Positions 4,358-62,197 of a DNA stretch of 64,000 nt are shown here, piece after piece. Made by a program: the position numbers and the translations under genes. The notes below the pieces were generated by a model. The model was not told the DNA's origin. It ran no database searches and saw nothing but the letters and a program-made list of their open reading frames with translations. Position 1 is the first letter of the stretch; every line of letters starts with the position of its first letter. The stretch is from an uncultured Alphaproteobacteria bacterium (GTDB lineage Bacteria; Pseudomonadota; Alphaproteobacteria; MPNO01; DASWLB01): contig CAWFOW010000011.1 of assembly GCA_963817535.1 (NCBI GenBank), positions 46,754-110,753 on the forward strand, given 5' to 3'.

Positions 4358-5169
4358 GCGCTGGTGGCGCGATAGCGACCGCGGCGGCGCCGCCGCCGGT
4401 GATCGTGCTGGACAACGTGTCGGTCGAGTTGTCTGGCGAACGCATCTACAATTCCATCGGATTTGCGGTCCGGCCCGGAGAGTTCCTGTGCATCCTGGGC
4501 CCCTCCGGGTGCGGCAAGTCCACCTGCCTGCGCCTGATGGGAGATCTCTTGCAGGCGAACGGCGGGACCGTGCGCGTCGACGGGCGGACCCCCGCCGAAG
4601 CGTGGGACCAGCTCGCCTACGTGTTCCAGGCGCCGCGCCTTGTGCCGTGGCGCACCGCGCTCGGCAATGTGATGCTGGCGATGGAGCTGCGCTTTGGGCG
4701 GGGTGCCAGGCGCGACATGGAGTCGAAGGGCCGCGCGCTGCTGGACCTTGTCGGGCTCGCCAACGATATCGAGAAATATCCCCGGATGCTTTCGGGCGGC
4801 GAGCGCCAGCGCGTCGCCATCGCCCGTGCCCTGGCGGTCGAGCCGAAGATCGTGCTTATGGACGAGCCGTTTTCGGCGCTGGATCTTAACACGCGCCGCC
4901 GGCTACGCGCCCAGATGATCTCGATCTGGGAGGAGACGGGGAAGACCATCGTCTTTGTCACCCATGACATCGACGAAGCGCTGGTCCTGGCCGACCGGAT
5001 CCTGTTGATGTCGAACAAGCCGACGCGCGTGATCGAGACCATCGAGATTGACCGGCCGCGACCGCGCGACCTGGACGGAACGCCCGAGCTTCGCGCTCAT
5101 CGCGACCATCTGCACCGTTTGTTCCGTCAGCTCGAGCCGGGATCCGAGGAAGAAACCCAACCGGGGTGA
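4354..5169 (+). CDS. ABC transporter ATP-binding protein, NitT/TauT (nitrate/sulfonate/bicarbonate) family
   Basis: Walker A GPSGCGKST, signature LSGGERQRVAIARAL, Walker B IVLMDEPFSALD. Start ATG shares ATGA with the RidA stop. Confidence 0.85.
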   Translation: MSAGGAIATAAAPPPVIVLDNVSVELSGERIYNSIGFAVRPGEFLCILGPSGCGKSTCLRLMGDLLQANGGTVRVDGRTPAEAWDQLAYVFQAPRLVPWRTALGNVMLAMELRFGRGARRDMESKGRALLDLVGLANDIEKYPRMLSGGERQRVAIARALAVEPKIVLMDEPFSALDLNTRRRLRAQMISIWEETGKTIVFVTHDIDEALVLADRILLMSNKPTRVIETIEIDRPRPRDLDGTPELRAHRDHLHRLFRQLEPGSEEETQPG

Positions 5170-5198
5170 GTGGACCCCGAAATACGGAGGCAGACGCA

Positions 5199-6185
5199 AT
5201 GAAGCGAACGATTGTCGGCGCGCTCGGCGCGCTTGCGGTGGCCCTGGTCGCCGCCGGCCCGGCCCTCGCAAAGGAAAGGATCAGCTATGCCTACCTGATC
5301 GATCCCGCCCTGGAGGGCATCTTGTACGGCATCAAGTCAGGCAAGGTGCATTCCGACACGGTCGAACTGGTGGCCACACCGCTGCCGATACCCGCGCTGA
5401 TCCAGTCGACAACGACCAAGCAGTACGACGTGATCATGAACGCCGTGCTGTCGATTCCGCGCGCCCTGGAGAAGGGGCTGAGGATGGAAGTGCTGTCGAC
5501 GGCCCTGCGCTCGGTGCCGAGCGCGGTGAGCGGCGCGGCCTGGGTCAAGAAGGACGGGCCCTACAAGACGCTGGCGGACCTGAAAGGCAAGACGATCGGT
5601 GACACATCGCTGCAATCGACCGGCACCATGTGGACGCGCATTGCCATGTGGAAGAAGCACGGCATTAACGTGATGTACGATAATGGCGACTTCAAATGGG
5701 TGCAGCTTCCGGCCTCGGGCCTTCTTGGCGCGGTGCAGACCGGGCGCATCGACGCAGCGAATCTGATCCACCTTCAGGCGTATGAGGCGCTGAAGTCGGG
5801 CAACTACGTCTCGCTCCTGCACACCGCTCAGGACCTCCACGAAATGTTCGGCGTGCGGCAGGTCTCGGCGGTCAATGTCGGTTATCCCGAGAAGCTCAAC
5901 GCGCGGCCCGATGCGTTCAAGGAGTTCGACCGCATGATCAAGGCCACGGTCGATTATGCCAGTGCCCACACGGCCGAAGTCGGCGAGGCGATTGCGAAGG
6001 AGTTCAAGATCTCGCCCGAGTTCTTCGGCTGGTGGCTTAAGAACTATTCGACGTTTCCCGGTGTGGTAAGCGATGGCGATCTGAAGGCCATGGAAGTGGT
6101 TTGGCAGAACGCGCACGATCTGCACGCGATGGGGACGTTCCCGAAGGCCGAGTCGGTCGTCTGGAAGTACGCGATCCGCGAGTAG
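5199..6185 (+). CDS. ABC transporter substrate-binding protein, NMT1/THI5-like (NitT/TauT family)
   Basis: Signal peptide MKRTIVGALGALAVALVAAGPALA and an SsuA/NMT1-like fold. RBS ggagg upstream. Confidence 0.8.
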   Translation: MKRTIVGALGALAVALVAAGPALAKERISYAYLIDPALEGILYGIKSGKVHSDTVELVATPLPIPALIQSTTTKQYDVIMNAVLSIPRALEKGLRMEVLSTALRSVPSAVSGAAWVKKDGPYKTLADLKGKTIGDTSLQSTGTMWTRIAMWKKHGINVMYDNGDFKWVQLPASGLLGAVQTGRIDAANLIHLQAYEALKSGNYVSLLHTAQDLHEMFGVRQVSAVNVGYPEKLNARPDAFKEFDRMIKATVDYASAHTAEVGEAIAKEFKISPEFFGWWLKNYSTFPGVVSDGDLKAMEVVWQNAHDLHAMGTFPKAESVVWKYAIRE

Positions 6186-6194
6186 ACTGGCCCC

Positions 6195-6992
6195 GTGGCG
6201 CGCGCGCTCGAAAACACCCGGAGCAGGTGGACCGCGGGCCGGCGTTCCCGGTTGGCGGCCCACCTGTTCACGCTCGCCGCGCTCGCGGTGTGGCAGCTTT
6301 ATTCGATGACGGTAGAGCCGTTCGTGATGCCCGGCCCGTGGCCGGTGGCGGAACGGCTCTACCAGTTCCTTACGACGTGGAGCCTCGCCAAGCACACGTT
6401 CTACTCGTTCGGGCATATATTTGCGGCAATGGCGATTTCGTTCCTGGTGGGGAGCGGGCTCGCGTTCCTTGCCCATTATGCTCCGGCCTTCCGTCTTGCC
6501 GTGCATGGGCGGCTGAGCCCGTTCCTGAACTCGTTCTCCGGGATCGGCTGGACGCTGCTCGCCATCGTCTGGTTCGGGGTGAACGACCTGACGGTCATTT
6601 TCGCGATCAGCGTGGTGCTGACGCCCTTCGCCATCATCAACATGCGTGAGGGGCTCGAGACGCTGGATTCCGAGCTGTTGGAGATGTCGGCGAGCTTCAC
6701 CCGCCGGCGTGGCCGGGAGTTCACGCGCATCGTGCTTCCGGCTCTGATGCCCTTCATTTTCGCGACGGCGCGGATCAGCTTCGGCGTGTCGTGGAAGGTG
6801 ACGCTGGCTGCCGAGCTGTTCGGCGGGCGCACCGGGCTTGGCTACCTGTTCAACCTGGCGCGTCAGGATTTCGACATGGCGCTGATCCTGGTTGTGATCG
6901 TGGTCATCATCGCCTTCGTCTACGGCACCGACAGGCTGGTCTTCGCACCGCTCCAGGCTCGGCTCGGCCGCCACCACGAGGCGGAACCGTGA
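6195..6992 (+). CDS. ABC transporter permease (NitT/TauT family)
   Basis: Multi-TM protein with the EAA-like loop typical of BPD permeases. GTG start. Confidence 0.8.
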   Translation: MARALENTRSRWTAGRRSRLAAHLFTLAALAVWQLYSMTVEPFVMPGPWPVAERLYQFLTTWSLAKHTFYSFGHIFAAMAISFLVGSGLAFLAHYAPAFRLAVHGRLSPFLNSFSGIGWTLLAIVWFGVNDLTVIFAISVVLTPFAIINMREGLETLDSELLEMSASFTRRRGREFTRIVLPALMPFIFATARISFGVSWKVTLAAELFGGRTGLGYLFNLARQDFDMALILVVIVVIIAFVYGTDRLVFAPLQARLGRHHEAEP

Positions 6993-15642: not shown

Positions 15643-15696
15643 CCCCCGCCCGGCCACCCAGACCAGCATACTGTCGTTGGGTGGCCGGGCCGGGGG
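15643..15696. repeat. Strong GC-rich hairpin (18-bp stem, 17-nt loop), REP-like palindromic element
   Basis: ccccgcccggccaccca ...17 nt... tgggtggccgggccggggg. No flanking U-tract on either strand. Confidence 0.5.
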
Positions 15697-15808
15697 AAGC
15701 GGGCCGGCGCGATTCCGCGCGAGCGGAAGATGCACTAGGTCATTTACCCATAAATGGGATTCCCATTTTTTGGGAAGGGTGATTCAGTCTCCTCGAAGGG
15801 AGACCGAG

Positions 15809-16578
15809 ATGGCACGTTTCGATCTGACGGATTTCGAGTGGTCTGTGATCCAGCCACTGCTGCCGAACAAGCCGCGCGGTGTGCCGCGTGTTGACGACCG
15901 CCGGGTGTTGAACGGGATTTTCTGGCGGCTTCGCACCGGCGCGCCGTGGGCCGACATTCCCGAGCGTTACGGTCCGCACACGACCTGCGTGAACCGCTTC
16001 AACCGCTGGCGCAGGGCGGGGGTGTGGGATCGGCTTCTCGAGGCGGTTTCCAAGGCTTACGAGGGCGACATCCAGATGATCAACTCCTCGATCATCCGCG
16101 TGCATCAGCACGCCGCCAACGCCCAAAAAAAGACGACCGATCCCGTTGCATGGGTCGCTCGCGCGGCGGGCTGACGACCAAGATCCATGCGCTGGTCGAT
16201 GCGAACGGCCTGCCGATCGTCCTCAAGCTGACCGAAGGCCAGGCCCATGACGGGCGCAGTGCCGAAGACATGTTCGGCTCTCTTGAAGCCGGCGACATCC
16301 TGCTCGCCGACCGGGCCTACGACAGCGACGCGCTCCGGCGAACCCTCGCCATGCGCGGCGCGTGGGGCAACATCAAGCCCATGCCCGGCCGCACCAACAT
16401 CCCAGCCTTCAGCCCGTTTCTTTACCGCTACCGCAACCTCGTCGAGCGCTTCTTCAACAAGCTCAAGCACTTTCGAGCCGTCGCCACCCGCTACGACAAA
16501 AGACCCGAAAACTACCTCGCATCCGTCAAGCTGGCCGCAGCCCGAATATGGATGCGATTTAATGAGTCGATGACCTAG
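15809..16578 (+). CDS. IS5/IS427-group transposase OrfAB (OrfA 15809-16174; OrfB frame continues to 16578 after programmed -1 frameshift)
   Basis: OrfA begins MARFDLTDFEWSVIQPLLP (DUF4096-type N-terminus). OrfB carries the DDE domain ...RGGLTTKIHALVDANGLPI...LLADRAYDSD... Confidence 0.8.
16126..16132 (+). other. Programmed -1 ribosomal frameshift slippery heptamer A_AAA_AAG
   Basis: In the OrfA frame the codons are CAA AAA AAG. OrfB is in the -1 frame relative to OrfA. Confidence 0.7.
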
Positions 16579-34838: not shown

Positions 34839-36060
34839 ATGAGCGCCGCCCGCCCGCTGCCCTTGTCCGGCATTCGCGTGCTCGATTTCGGGCATATCGT
34901 GGCGGGCCCCTTCTGCGTGCGGATGCTGGCGGATCTCGGCGCCGACGTCGTCAAGATCGAGACGGCATCGCGCCAGGGGCGCACCGGCGCCCGGCGCGGC
35001 AGCAGCGGACGGGGCGGCAATACCAGTGGTCGGACGCCGATTCTGTTTCACATCAACCGCAACCGCCGGTCCATCGACCTCGACCTGAAGACCGAGCGCG
35101 GTTGTGACGTCGCGCACCGGCTTGTCGATGTCGCGGACGTGATCGTCGAGAATTTCTCGAGCGGCGTCATGGATCGACTCGGGTTCGGCTACGACGCGCT
35201 GGCAACCACCAATCCGCGGCTCGTCTACGCCAGCATGTCGGCCTTCGGCCATTCGGGTCCGCACCGAGACTGGACCGGCATGAACGTCACGCTCCAGGCC
35301 TGCTCCGGCCTGATGCTCGCGACCGGACGGGCCGGCGATCCGCCGATCGGGATCTCCAACAGCTGGAACGACTATATCGGCGGGCTTCACGCCGCGGTCG
35401 CGATCATCGGCGCCCTGTCCGAGCGCGCGCAGACCGGCCGTGGCCGTCATCTCGACGTGTCGCAGTTCGAATGCAGCGTCGCGATGATCGGCAGCCTGCT
35501 GCTTTCCAGCATTATCGACCGGGCACCGCCTGAGCGTATCGGAAGCCGCTCGCGCGCCGTCGCGCCTCAGGGCTGCTATCGCTGCGCCGGCGAGGATCAA
35601 TGGTGCGCGATCAGCGTGCAGGACGACGAGCAGTGGCGCGCGCTCGTCGACGAGCTTGGCGAGGCCGCGACGTCTTTTCACGATCCGCGCTACGCGACCC
35701 TGGCCGGCCGGCTCGAGAATCACGACGCGATCGACGAAGTGATCGAATTCTTGGACCCAGGAGCTTGGTCCGACGGACGTCGAGCGCCGCCTCGGTGCGC
35801 GCGGCGTACCGGGGGCCGCGATGCGGCGCGGCGACGAGATAGCCGGTATGGAGTCCTGGCGCCAGGTTTTGCGCCCGGTCGCGGGTCGGGACGGGCCGTC
35901 TGAAAGGTCCGTCGGGTTGCCGTTCACCTTCGGCGGGTGCGCCCCGGTGGGCGCAACGCCCGCGCCCCGCATGGGCGAGCAGGGGCGCGAGGTCGTGCGC
36001 GACTGGCTGAAGCTCGATGATCGTGCGGTCGAGGAGCTGTTCCCGGAGGTTTCGGTCTGA
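34839..36060 (+). pseudogene. Family III CoA-transferase (CaiB/BaiF) gene with apparent +1 frameshift near 35755-35770
   Basis: N-terminus LSGIRVLDFGHIVAGPFCVRMLADLGADVVKIE. The C-terminal CaiB block (ELGPTDVERRLGARGVPGAAMRRGDEIAG...APRMGEQGREVVRDWLKLDDRAVEEL) is in the +1 frame (track ORF 35821-36060). Confidence 0.65.
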
Positions 36061-37179
36061 TGGCGCGCATCCTCGACCTGACGAGCGTGACGGGCGCGTA
36101 TGGCATGCGCCTCCTGGCCGAGATGGGTCACGAGGTGGTGCGTGTCGAGCGTCCCGAAGGCGACGAGGTGCGGCGCCTTTACCCGCATATCGGCGCCGTA
36201 CCGGACGCCGAGTTCGAGCGCGTTTCATCAGTTCCTCAACGCCGGCAAGCGCAGCTTTGCGGTGGACGTCGAAACCGAGGACGGGCGGCGCCGGCTTCTG
36301 GCCCTGGTCGCTACGGCGGACGCGATGGTGGCGAGCCTGCCGCTGCCACTCGACGAGGACGCATTGCACGCCGCCAACCCGGATATGGTCCTTGTTCGGC
36401 TCGACGACGGGCCGCCCGAGCTCTGCGGCTTCGCGGCATCGGGGCTGCTTGGCATTACAGGGGAGCCCGATGGCCGGCCGGTTCCGCTCGGCGGTCACGT
36501 TCCCAGCTCGGCCGTCGGCATCTATGTCGCGATGGCGACCGCCGCCGCGCTGTTCGCCCGTGACGGCGCCGGCGCGGGGCAGTTGGTGGATGTCTCGGCG
36601 GAGCAGTGCCTCGCCGCGCTTGCCGAGCAGGTCTGGGTTGAGTACGCGTCGTCGGGCGAGACGCTGGAGCGGCTCGGCTCGTGCGGCGGCGTCACGGCGC
36701 TCGCCGGCGCGCTTCCGTGCGCGGACGGCCACTGGATGGTGAGCGTACCGCCCGACCCGCAGGGCTGGGCGAACTTCGTCCAGCTCGTGCCGGACCCCGC
36801 GTTCAAGGACGATGCGTCGATGGCCGACGAGGCACTGCGGCGAGAGCGGAAGCACGAGATTCTCGATCGCGTCGCGGTTTGGTCGACGCCGCGCAAGAAG
36901 GCCGAGATCGTCGAGGAGGCGCAGCGCCGGCACATCCCCGCGGCGCCGGTGTCGAGCCCGGACGAGCTTGCCCACAATCCGCAGCTTCTCGCGCGCGGCT
37001 TCCTGCGCGAGGTCGATCATCCTGTCGCGGGCAGGATCAATTTTCCGGTGGGAGCGCTGGCAAGCCTCTGGGGACGATCGCCTCCCCTGGCGCCGCGCCT
37101 TGGCCAGGACAATGCCGCAATCCTGAATGAGCTCGACAATTCGGCCGATGATCCCGCGCAACCGTCGCGCGGCACGTGA
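36060..37179 (+). pseudogene. Second family III CoA-transferase (CaiB/BaiF) gene with apparent +1 frameshift near 36215-36235
   Basis: N-terminus MARILDLTSVTGAYGMRLLAEMGHEVVRVERPEGDEV is in frame 36060. The remainder, FHQFLNAGKRSFAVDV...HPVAGR..., is in frame 36100. Confidence 0.65.
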
Positions 37180-38339
37180 CCGACCAGGGGAGACCTCCGA
37201 TGACGACAGCCTGTCTTGCCCCTAACGGCATGAACGTCTATCGCGGCGATGCGGCCGTGACACGCCTTCTCGTCGGTACGGCGAACGGCGTGGTGGTGCT
37301 CGAACGCACGCCAGGAAGCGACTGGGCGGTGACCGGCATGACGCTCGACGGGCCGCATATCAGCTCGCTTCTGATTGAGCCCGTACGCGGCGGCATCTTC
37401 GCCGGGGTGCATCGCGGCGGCATCTATTACAGCCCCGACGGCGGCCGGAGCTGGGAGCCGCGCAGCGAAGGCATTACGATCGAGCACGTGTTCACCCTGG
37501 GCTGCACGGTCGAGAACGGCGAGCCGGTCATCCTTGCGGGCACCGAGCCGGTCAGCGCGTTCTGCAGCCGCGACGAGGGGCGGAGCTGGAAGGAGTTGCC
37601 GGGGCTACACGACATGAAGGGCAAGGAAAAGTGGATGTTCCCCATGCCGCCCCATGTCGCGCATGCGAAGACGATCGCGGTCGATCCGCGCGATCCGAGG
37701 ACCATCTATGTCGGCATCGAGCAGGGTGGGCTTTTCAAGACCGTCGATGGCGGACAGAACTGGCGCGAGCTCGAATCCTATTGGCGACCCGAGGACGAGG
37801 CGTACCGGGACGTTCACCAGATCGTGCTGCGTCCGAACCATCCCGACGAGGTCTACATGACCGGCGGCATGGGGCTCTATCGCAGCATGGACGGCGGCGA
37901 AAACTGGACGCACCTGACCGAGCGGCACGGCTTCCGCATTGGATATCCCGACAAGCTGATCTTCGCGCCCGACGACGACCGCACGATGTATATGTGCGGT
38001 TCGATGGGCAACCCGGGCACCTGGATCGAGCTGCATACCGCGAACGCGACCGTCCTGGTGAGCCACGACCGCGGCGAGACCTGGGCTTCTGCACATAAGG
38101 GTTTGCCCGACCCGATGACCGCCAATCTCGAAGCAATGTGCCGCTACGACTCGCCCGATGGGTTCGAGCTGTTCGCCGGCACGACCGAGGGCAAGGTCTA
38201 TTGCAGCGAAGGCGGCAGCAACAAATGGCGCCTGATCGCTGGTGAGTTGGCGCCGGTCTCGAAGGTCGCGCATTTCCGGCTGCTGCTACCGGGTGCCGTG
38301 TCCTCGCGCGGCAAGCGCCCGACCCAAGCGCCGGCATAA
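37176..38339 (+). CDS. BNR/Asp-box repeat beta-propeller protein, no signal peptide (paralog of 44627-45721)
   Basis: Repeated S-x-D-x-G-x-(T/S)-W motifs: SPDGGRSW, SRDEGRSW, TVDGGQNW, SMDGGENW, SHDRGETW. Confidence 0.6.
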   Translation: MTDQGRPPMTTACLAPNGMNVYRGDAAVTRLLVGTANGVVVLERTPGSDWAVTGMTLDGPHISSLLIEPVRGGIFAGVHRGGIYYSPDGGRSWEPRSEGITIEHVFTLGCTVENGEPVILAGTEPVSAFCSRDEGRSWKELPGLHDMKGKEKWMFPMPPHVAHAKTIAVDPRDPRTIYVGIEQGGLFKTVDGGQNWRELESYWRPEDEAYRDVHQIVLRPNHPDEVYMTGGMGLYRSMDGGENWTHLTERHGFRIGYPDKLIFAPDDDRTMYMCGSMGNPGTWIELHTANATVLVSHDRGETWASAHKGLPDPMTANLEAMCRYDSPDGFELFAGTTEGKVYCSEGGSNKWRLIAGELAPVSKVAHFRLLLPGAVSSRGKRPTQAPA

Positions 38340-44626: not shown

Positions 44627-45721
44627 TCACGCAGGCTGCAGCGGGCGATAATGGCGCCCCTTGGTGACCGGGGCGAGGCTGCCGGCGATCATCGTCCAGT
44701 TCTCCGCCCCGTCCTCGCTCGCCATGACGATGCCGTCCGTCGTTCCGGCGAAAAGAACGAACCCGCCGGGATATGTGGCAAGACTCATCGCCTCGATGTT
44801 GGCGCGCCGGCTTTCGGGAAAGCCCCGGCTCGCATCGGTCCAGGTCAGGCCCCGGTCGAGGCTTCGCGCGACCGTCCCGTCGGCGAAGCGGGACGTTTGC
44901 CAAGTGCCAGGGTCCTTCCCGGCACCGGCCATGAACATCGTATCGTGATCGAGCGGCGAGACGAAAAAGTGGTCCGGATACCCGATGCGAAAGTCGTTGT
45001 CGATGATCAGTGTCCAGCTTTCGCCCGCGTCGTAGCTGCGATAGAGCCCCATGCCGGTCGTCATGTAGAGTTCGGCCGAGCTCGACGGGTGGACGACGAT
45101 CAGGTGAATGTCACGATACGTCCAATCGCTCGGCTTCGAATAGTCGTCCAGAACGCGCCAGCTCGCGCCGCCGTCGGTCGTCTTCAAAAGGTCGCCCTGT
45201 TCGACTCCCGCATAGATCACGTTCGGATCGTGCGGATCGACAGTCATCGTCTTCACGTGCGCCTCGTGCGGCGGGCTCGGAAACGACCACTTCTCGCGCC
45301 CCCTGGTCTCCTTTACGCCCGGTAGCTCGATCCATGCCCGGCCGTAATCGTTGCTGCGGAACATCGAGGCCGGTTCGGTGCCGGCATAGAGCACGACGGC
45401 ATCGCCGTGATGTGCGTAGCCGAGCGAAAACACGTGCCCGATCGTAATGCCGTTCGAGCGGGGCTCCCACGTCTCGCCGCCATCCGCGCTGAAGAACAGG
45501 CCACCGGAATGCATGCCGGCGAAGATGCCGCCACGGCGGGGCTCGATCATGATCGAGCTGCAATGGTGCCCCTCCAGCCTCAGGCCTTGCTCGGCCCAGG
45601 GGGCATTCGGCGTTTCGCGCTCGAGGACGCTGATGCCGCGCAGCGTCGCGACGAGAAGGCGCGTCGGCGGAGAATCGCCGGTCATCTGATTCTGGCCATT
45701 CGGCGACAGGCACGCAATCAT
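44627..45721 (-). CDS. BNR/Asp-box repeat beta-propeller protein (paralog of 37176-38339)
   Basis: SADGGETW, SNDYGRAW, TTDGGASW, SYDAGESW, SLDRGLTW. About 55% identical to its paralog by eye. Confidence 0.6.
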   Translation of the reverse strand: MIACLSPNGQNQMTGDSPPTRLLVATLRGISVLERETPNAPWAEQGLRLEGHHCSSIMIEPRRGGIFAGMHSGGLFFSADGGETWEPRSNGITIGHVFSLGYAHHGDAVVLYAGTEPASMFRSNDYGRAWIELPGVKETRGREKWSFPSPPHEAHVKTMTVDPHDPNVIYAGVEQGDLLKTTDGGASWRVLDDYSKPSDWTYRDIHLIVVHPSSSAELYMTTGMGLYRSYDAGESWTLIIDNDFRIGYPDHFFVSPLDHDTMFMAGAGKDPGTWQTSRFADGTVARSLDRGLTWTDASRGFPESRRANIEAMSLATYPGGFVLFAGTTDGIVMASEDGAENWTMIAGSLAPVTKGRHYRPLQPA

Positions 45722-45757
45722 GTCAACCTCGCCTCTGCCCTAGGGGCTGTCCAATAA

Positions 45758-45774
45758 GTTACATACTGCACAAT
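45758..45774. promoter_or_regulatory. Operator-like motif GTTACATACTGCACAAT upstream of the BNR gene
   Basis: Shares the GTTA.A.ACTGCA.AA core with the palindrome at 46857-46879. Confidence 0.4.
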
Positions 45775-52418: not shown

Positions 52419-54041
52419 ATGACATCTCTCACCGCGACGCCAGCCTGGCAGGCGCTCACGACCCACTATGCGAAAATCAAGGACCTGCACCTGAGAAACC
52501 TGTTCGCCGACGATCCCGGCCGTGCCGAGCGGATGTGTGCCGAGGGCGCCGGCCTGTTCCTCGACTACTCGAAGAACCGGATCACCGACGATACGCTGCC
52601 CCTGCTACTGAAGCTCGCCGAGGAACGCGGTGTGGCCGCCCGGCGCGACGCAATGTTCGCGGGCGAGGCGATCAACACCACGGAGCGCCGCGCGGTGCTG
52701 CACGTGGCCCTCCGCGCGCCGCGAAGTGCCCGCATCGAGGTCGACGGGGCCGATGTGGTGCCTGATGTTCATCGGGTGCTGGACGCGATGGCGGATTTCA
52801 CGACGCGCCTGCGCAACGGCAGCGGGACAGGCCATACGGGGAAGCGCATCCGCAATGTCGTGAATATCGGTATCGGCGGGTCGTATCTCGGGCCCGAGAT
52901 GGCCTATCGCGCGCTGCGCCCGTTCAGCGACCGCTCGATGACATTCCGCTTCGTCGCTAATGTCGACGGTGCCGATTTCGGCGAGGCGACGCACGACCTC
53001 GACGCGGCCGAGACGCTGTTCATCGTCTCGTCGAAGACCTTCACGACGCTGGAGACCATGACCAACGCGGCGACGGCGCGCGCCTGGCTGGTCGGAAAGC
53101 TCGGCTCCGACAAGGCGGTGGCTAAGCATTTCGCGGCGGTCTCGACCAATATCCCTGCCGTCACAAAGTTCGGCATCGACGAGGCCAACACGTTCGGCTT
53201 CTGGGACTGGGTCGGCGGCCGCTATTCGATGGACAGCGCCATCGGGCTGTCCACGATGATCGCTTTGGGGCCGGATAACTATCGCGACCTGCTCGCGGGC
53301 TTCCATGCGATGGACGAGCATTTCCGCACGGCACCCGCGGCCCGCAACCTGCCGATGCTGCTCGGGCTCCTTACGGTCTGGTACAACAACTTCTTCGGCG
53401 CGCAGACCGTCGGTGTCATGCCGTACTCGGCCCACCTCGCGCGCTTCCCCGCCTATCTCCAACAACTGCAGATGGAGAGCAACGGCAAGCATGTCGATCT
53501 CGACGGCGACGTCGTCGACTATCAGACAGGCCCCGTCATCTGGGGCGAGCCTGGCACGGACGGCCAGCACTCATTCTACCAGCTGATCCATCAAGGCACG
53601 AAGCTCATCCCTTGCGACATGATCGGCTTCTGCCGCCCGCTGAGTCCGCTCGCCGATCAGCATGACCTGCTGATGGCCAACCTGTTCGCGCAGGCCGAAG
53701 CGCTGGCTTTCGGCAAGACCGCCGAGGAACTGGAGGCCGAAGGCTCGCCCAGCTTCCAAACGCCCCATCGAGTCGCCGAGGGTAACCGGCCGACCAACCT
53801 GATCCTGGCCGAGAAGCTCGACCCCGCGACGCTGGGAAGCCTAGTGTCATTGTACGAGCACTCGGTCTTCACTCAAGGCGCAATCTGGGGGATCGACAGC
53901 TTCGATCAGTGGGGCGTCGAGCTGGGCAAGGTCTTGGCCAGCCGCATCATCCCCGAACTCGGCCACGAAACTGAGCCGAAGCTGGCACATGACTCATCGA
54001 CCAACGCGCTGATTACGCGTTACCGGCGCTTGCGCGGGTGA
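52419..54041 (+). CDS. pgi: Glucose-6-phosphate isomerase
   Basis: 540 aa. PGI signature blocks ([40 protein letters not shown], the conserved catalytic Glu/His region). Confidence 0.9.
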
Positions 54042-62127: not shown

Positions 62128-62197
62128 GCGGACGCCGCCGTTCCGTCCCGGAGCCTTCGCGGGCTCCGGGCACGGATGGCGCAAACGACAGCGACGC

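Follow-up and report, generated by a model that had tools for sequence, protein, structure and literature searches.

Two neighboring genes in a 64,000-nucleotide (64-kb) stretch of an uncultured alphaproteobacterial genome (contig CAWFOW010000011.1; hereafter, the window) raise the question of whether a pair of broken reading frames reflects gene decay, recoding during translation, or a flaw in the assembly. The two genes, here called A (34839-36060) and B (36060-37179), lie in tandem on the plus strand, are translationally coupled, encode family-III CoA-transferases, and each have one +1 frame change. We consider it very probable that both frame changes are methylation-motif consensus errors of long-read assembly, not mutations. 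This reading is favored because insertions and deletions (indels) among related assemblies gather at the motif GANTC, orthologs of both genes are intact, and the signal of selection persists downstream of a lesion.

Gene A starts at an ATG (34839), begins with MSAARPLPLSGIRVLDFGHIVAGPF..., and is read in frame 0 (coordinate modulo 3) until about 35748. Its conserved C-terminal blocks, SWTQELGPTDVERRLGARGVPGAAM...APRMGEQ..., lie in frame 1 and end at a TGA stop (36058-36060). The N-terminal part is 70-73% identical to full-length 400-amino-acid (aa) orthologs, and the tblastn alignment of ortholog P0002 to gene A breaks between residues 303 and 304. The ATG of gene B (36060) overlaps the stop codon of gene A as TGATG (36058-36062), and the stop codon of gene B in turn overlaps the GTG start (37176) of the next gene, which encodes a BNR-repeat protein. 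The 51 N-terminal codons of gene B match residues 1-51 of the intact relative protein P0242 at 100% identity, and the remainder shows 99.1% identity to residues 52-380. Once a single T had been deleted from each gene, the Pfam profile PF02515 (CoA_transf_3; curated cut-off, 23.3 bits) matched end to end, with 322 bits for gene A (profile positions 1-365 of 366) and 201 bits for gene B (5-366 of 366).

A codon-composition Viterbi scan of the whole window placed the frame switches independently at 35756/7 in gene A and at 36223/4 in gene B, and these were the only two same-strand switches without a stop codon. That no further frameshift was found in the 64 kb was counted in favor of an assembly artifact. 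A third candidate for a frame switch, at 52449, was rejected as the intergenic leader of pgi, and another, at 62196, as an ordinary gene boundary. The truncated open reading frames (ORFs) of the window encode exactly the proteins recorded as P0241 (354 aa) and P0243 (345 aa) on a 758,314-bp NCBI/ENA contig, and the frameshifts are therefore present in the public record rather than introduced in the window. Translation, the Pfam match, the scan, and the public records together confirmed the first-pass annotation of this stretch, which had described two tandem CoA-transferase genes, each with a +1 frameshift. The coordinates of the gene parts and of the two lesions are listed in Table 1.

Table 1. 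Segments of the CoA-transferase genes A and B and the two sites at which their frames change (window coordinates)
Feature	Coordinates	Strand	Description	Basis
Gene A, N-terminal part	34839..35748	+	303 codons, frame 0, BbsF-like	ORF list, translation, Pfam PF02515
Site 1	35745..35750	+	GAATTC = GAATC (GANTC) + extra T at 35748/35749	
Gene A, C-terminal part	35749..36060	+	103 codons + stop, frame 1	Translation, tblastn, variable sites
Gene B, N-terminal part	36060..36213	+	51 codons, frame 0, BbsE-like subunit; begins MARILDLTSVTGAYGM...	
Site 2	36210..36215	+	GAGTTC = GAGTC (GANTC) + extra T at 36213/36214	
Gene B, remainder	36214..37179	+	321 codons + stop, frame 1, from SSAFHQFLNAGKRS; stop 37177-37179	

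The relatives used for comparison were sister assemblies with Flye-style contig names (contig_N), namely L002, contig_11352 (loci L003, L015, L019, and L021), and L016, together with Logan k-mer contigs of run ERR11594398 (L001, L014, and L018), which stem from the same strain and are 99.7-100% identical to the window. At site 1, the window reads GAA TTC TTG G (35745-35754), and dropping one T yields GAA TCT TGG (E-S-W). The orthologs of gene A (~400 aa) read ...HHDEIDAAIESWT... in one frame, and their counterpart of the site is IESWT, IEAWT, or LETWT, again without any change of frame. The extra T at this site is common to the window, L002, L003, and L014. At site 2, L003, which is 99.4% identical to the window overall, has GCCGAG-TCGAGC where the window has GCCGAGTTCGAGC, and it encodes P0242 as an intact 380-aa protein. 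In addition, the Stellaceae genome L009, an Illumina-assembled and k141-named metagenome-assembled genome (MAG), carries GAATCGAGC in frame at the homologous place.

Both sites are thus a GANTC with a duplicated T, each within a Glu-Ser codon pair, and they are 465 nt apart. The first-pass annotation had put the lesions at about 35755-35770 and 36215-36235, which was approximately right, the exact junctions (35748/49 and 36213/14) being 2-7 nt away from these estimates. Its suggestion of systematic indel errors is the option favored by our analysis, on account of the motif association, the intact relatives, and the selection signal. The GC-rich context that it had named as their cause does not hold, since neither site is a homopolymer or unusually GC-rich, and what changed is a T to TT in mixed sequence within GANTC. 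In Alphaproteobacteria, this motif is methylated to N6-methyladenine (m6A) by the adenine methyltransferase CcrM, as restated in PMC12710330.

The association with GANTC extends well beyond these two sites. The motif with 1 nt on either side covers ~1.6% of the window, and 12 of the 36 indel events that distinguish the window from its sisters are GANTC-associated, for ~0.7 expected. More specifically, the comparison of the window with L002, L003, and L014 gave 8 associated events out of 25 (0.5 expected; P = 2e-8), and further regions gave 4 out of 11 (0.18 expected; P = 2e-5); in contig_11352 (loci L019 and L021), four of the five new events were at GANTC. Most of the associated events are a duplicated A or T inside the motif: GAGTC became GAGTTC, or the complement GACTC became GAACTC, at window positions 369, 34451, 36213, 42932, 43038, and 53992, and GAATC became GAATTC at 37777. 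In the sister assemblies, several such lesions break genes that are whole in the window, a cupin being cut to 35 aa, a hydantoinase B gene split, and a thiolase deprived of its N-terminus.

The k-mer contigs point to the same motif. Three of six ends of the ERR11594398 contigs lie inside or adjoin a GANTC (1.6% expected), whereas GANTC is absent from both ends of L014 and from those of Logan contigs of another run, ERR11571143. Over 1,091 nt, L014 differs from the window only at the GANTC at 35717, where it has GAATCTCAC for GAATCAC, and by one substitution; L002 has GAAAATC at this place. The disagreement of L014, L002, and the window indicates that calls at the motif are unstable even within one sample. 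GANTC is also strongly depleted in the window, with 143 sites against 321 +/- 20 in dinucleotide-preserving shuffles, which fits a genome in which the motif would have a biological role.

On this evidence, we propose that the organism would be a Stellaceae-related alphaproteobacterium, the nearest relatives of these genes being Stellaceae, in which CcrM would methylate the GANTC adenine on both strands. The modified base would disturb basecalling such that the A, or the T opposite, is called twice. At the two sites, the wrong call would be the majority call and would survive polishing, turning GAATC into GAATTC and GAGTC into GAGTTC. Because the extra Ts would be consensus errors, the real genes would be intact and would encode two subunits of a BbsF/BbsE-like family-III CoA-transferase. 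This presupposes that the reads are Nanopore reads and that GANTC is methylated in this organism, both of which we infer. The Flye-style contig names of the sisters resemble those of the Nanopore MAGs of the Microflora Danica (MFD) long-read project, from which the window presumably derives. In that project, reads were basecalled with Guppy in super-accurate mode, assembled with Flye, and polished once with Medaka 1.8 (PMC12313526).

Errors of a comparable kind have been described. Two studies link errors in Nanopore assemblies to GANTC/CcrM methylation in Brucella and agrobacteria and to GATC/Dam methylation in enterobacteria; the errors lie in or next to the methylated motif, affect only some of its occurrences, recur across samples, and fall mostly in coding sequence (PMC12392509; PMC12710330). 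The indels described here share the association with a methylation motif, one-third of the events being at GANTC. The published errors appear to be mainly substitutions, whereas in the window and its sisters a single nucleotide of GANTC, the A or the T, is duplicated and a frameshift results, and methylation of the motif is in our case presumed.

Several observations weigh against a consensus error. Both extra Ts are present in the raw-run k-mer contig L014, and the T at site 1 is found in all three assemblies, where a real insertion would look identical. Only 2 of the ~145 GANTC sites of the window are hit, and these two are 465 nt apart, which purely motif-driven error does not explain. Both also lie inside a patch at 35-39 kb, spanning genes A and B and the BNR-repeat gene, where mismatches between the window and L002/L003 amount to 3-5% per kb as opposed to <0.6% in the flanks; the patch resembles a set of recombination tracts or a region that varies between haplotypes, and the indels of all three assemblies cluster in it. 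In addition, a large number of indels lie away from GANTC in the low-coverage relatives L002, L016, and L013. Finally, L002 has a 1-nt deletion that lies 17 nt upstream of its T at site 2 and cancels the shift, which is readable as real compensatory evolution. L002 carries ~6 indels per kb around site 2, so that, by a rough estimate, a chance pairing of the deletion with the T is not unlikely.

Genuine pseudogenization, which the first-pass annotation had offered as the other main option, survives best among the alternatives, and we regard it as unlikely. It would require that real 1-bp insertions inactivated both subunit genes, the one at site 1 being ancestral to three strains and the one at site 2 occurring later. 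The genes do resemble single-base frameshift pseudogenes in that the conserved remainder of each follows its truncated ORF in a different frame, with fragments of 354 and 345 aa in the public record. The extra Ts occur in the polished assembly as well as in the k-mer contig of the run, the three assemblies that share the T at site 1 come from different samples, and this operon has additional lesions in sister assemblies, as a decaying locus would show. Moreover, the lesions strike two subunits of one enzyme, where losing one would relax selection on the other. Yet both of them, and a third of the other indels, fall on a motif that accounts for ~1.6% of positions and is tied to technical error, and similar GANTC lesions in the sister assemblies strike unrelated genes across 64 kb. 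To our knowledge, no mutational process duplicates a single T at GANTC.

Comparison with relatives also argues against decay. The closest relative, L003, has a whole gene B, and A and B are adjacent and each read in a single frame in nine other, more distant genomes: six k141-named (short-read-style) Stellaceae MAGs, one Rhodospirillales MAG, and two Eremiobacterota/Vulcanimicrobiota MAGs. Many ortholog pairs of A and B were found on shared contigs. The T at site 2 occurs in the window and in the divergent L002 (52 mismatches in 36000-36999) but is missing from L003, which has 3 mismatches in that interval. This distribution conflicts with the relatedness of the strains, and a T that reappears at one site is better explained by a systematic error than by inheritance. 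The T at site 1 is the same in the window, L002, and L003 and is therefore uninformative on relatedness.

The sharing of the T at site 1 does make a different comparison possible, in that, if it were real, the codons of gene A downstream of it would have drifted since the strains diverged. Variable sites in this part are 11 synonymous to 8 nonsynonymous in the shifted frame (P = 0.004-0.02 versus neutral, from small counts), whereas in the unshifted frame they are a neutral-looking 4 to 11. The Nei-Gojobori omega over these ~100 codons is 0.20-0.23, a value that rests on small counts and in which recombination could blur the test. Relaxed selection (omega about 1) was sought downstream of the shared lesion and, within the same small counts, was not seen. 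Unlike in typical pseudogenes, the synonymous bias thus persists in the shifted frame beyond the lesion, and the motif association, the intact gene B of L003, and this purifying selection together disfavor the loss of function. The further suggestion of the first-pass annotation, that two AMP-ligases in the region might take over a lost CoA-transfer step, finds no support in any of our results.

A related possibility is that the extra Ts are real and that GANTC sites would be genuine hot spots for single-base duplication in this alphaproteobacterial population; the BbsEF-like CoA-transferase and other genes of the sister strains would be decaying through mutagenesis linked to methylation sites. 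We consider this improbable, and somewhat more so than ordinary pseudogenization.

Strain mixing without any role for methylation appears less probable still. According to this explanation, reads of co-occurring strains in the haplotype-variable patch at 35-39 kb would have produced a chimeric consensus with stray indels. Divergence rises to 3-5% in exactly this patch, where the indels of all three assemblies cluster, and the long-read MAG L013 shows several frameshifts in this gene pair that are not at GANTC. However, mixing leaves unexplained that both lesions of the window are a duplicated T in GANTC. Indels at GANTC are also found far outside the patch (at 369, 10999, 42932, 43038, 53992, and 57988), and over 1.09 kb L014, a contig of the same run, otherwise matches the window exactly. 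Strain mixing may instead be a co-factor to methylation rather than its competitor, as mixed haplotypes in the patch could plausibly lower the quality of the consensus.

Programmed +1 ribosomal frameshifting, in which the Ts are real and ribosomes shift at both sites to yield full-length subunits, can practically be dismissed; the first-pass annotation had already ranked it as much less likely. A +1 change is needed for the full-length product, as in prfB, both parts of each gene look constrained, and the two sites have the local form GAR-TTC in common, but every ortholog examined is single-frame with no conserved shift site, and the near-identical L003, lacking the T at site 2, encodes the protein directly. 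Neither a prfB-type slippery run nor an in-frame stop follows either site (frame 0 continues for 150 and 350 nt), and that two adjacent genes should simultaneously have acquired such a device, precisely at a methylation motif, is not credible.

Collectively, A and B belong to a well-populated CoA-transferase family, are most likely intact, and are biologically ordinary. The case calls for caution with Nanopore-only alphaproteobacterial MAGs, which can hold false frameshifts at GANTC that recur across samples and so seem conserved. Such frameshifts are deposited as truncated proteins, as with P0241 and P0243, and can inflate pseudogene counts or hide steps of a pathway. Screening for GAANTC or GANTTC hexamers at a frame switch would flag them.

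Other deposited copies of the pair are affected as well. In L013 (MFD05513.bin.2.149, 4693-6980), the pair is broken by at least four frameshifts; these were examined for GANTC, and none was motif-linked, the errors being CC-to-C and similar. A further public record holds P0151, a 630-aa fused A-B product. Given the L013 frameshifts and this fusion, deposited A-B pairs are often corrupted, and given the nature of the L013 errors, not every error in the pair is motif-linked.

With respect to the identity of the enzyme, gene A scored 173 bits over its full length against chain 9fn0_B of the benzylsuccinate CoA-transferase in the PDB and 94 bits against 9fn0_A. For gene B, the best full-length PDB matches were 4ed9_A (110.7 bits) and 9fn0_A (107.1 bits), with 69 bits to 9fn0_B. 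The CaiB/BaiF protein 4ed9 scored similarly to or higher than 9fn0 for both genes. In pairwise alignments alone, the Asp of WNDYIGG in gene A aligns with a conserved Asp of 4ed9 (FADIFTG) and 10uh (MTDIVAG), and gene B has a Ser (VPSSAVG) at the position aligned with this Asp. The catalytic aspartate of family III is Asp169 in formyl-CoA transferase. These alignments suggest one catalytic (A) and one non-catalytic (B) subunit, as in heteromeric family-III enzymes, and the enzyme is presumably active.

The neighborhood comprises a zinc-type alcohol dehydrogenase, a Zn-finger/OB protein with an SCP-x-type thiolase (BbsAB-like), a cupin, A and B, the BNR-repeat protein, a MaoC-type hydratase, HpaB, a GntR regulator, LigB, and Rieske oxygenases. 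From its gene content, this setting would be a cluster for side-chain beta-oxidation and aromatic degradation. The likeness to BbsEF lies in two adjacent paralogous family-III genes, each closest to a different Bbs subunit, and in neighbors that include a Zn-finger/OB protein and thiolase, as in BbsAB, plus a hydratase (PMC10818641). The similarity in sequence is moderate, however, with 4ed9 scoring as high or higher, the gene order is F-like then E-like, and the surrounding genes are those of aerobic aromatic degradation (HpaB, LigB, and Rieske oxygenases) rather than of an anaerobic toluene pathway. The substrate is probably other than in the succinyl-CoA:(R)-benzylsuccinate reaction of BbsEF. 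CoA transfer by the pair most likely serves to activate an aromatic or dicarboxylic acid, which would then be hydrated and cleaved by a thiolytic or retro-aldol reaction.

Two BNR/Sortilin-type beta-propeller genes (37176-38339 and 44636-45760) lie in this aromatic-degradation cluster, the first of them translationally coupled to gene B. To find a BNR gene beside CoA-transferase and hydratase genes is unusual, and the arrangement is conserved in L003. Gene B of the window (...PSRGT*) stops 7 codons short of its counterparts in L002 and L003 (...PSRGTRPTRGDLR*). This end varies among orthologs, and comparison of the sequences suggests that the earlier stop in the window is the product of a substitution.

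The window also contains a frameshift element of a different kind. In an IS5/IS427-type transposase (15677-16578), two ORFs overlap, and the canonical heptamer A AAA AAG lies at 16125-16131. A -1 slip at the heptamer joins ...NAQKK to KDDRSRCMGRSRGGLTTKIH..., which has the look of true programmed -1 frameshifting. The two transposase ORFs are fused into a 256-aa call in the sister contig (L021), where 1 nt is inserted at window position 16042 and the call runs through an out-of-frame stretch.

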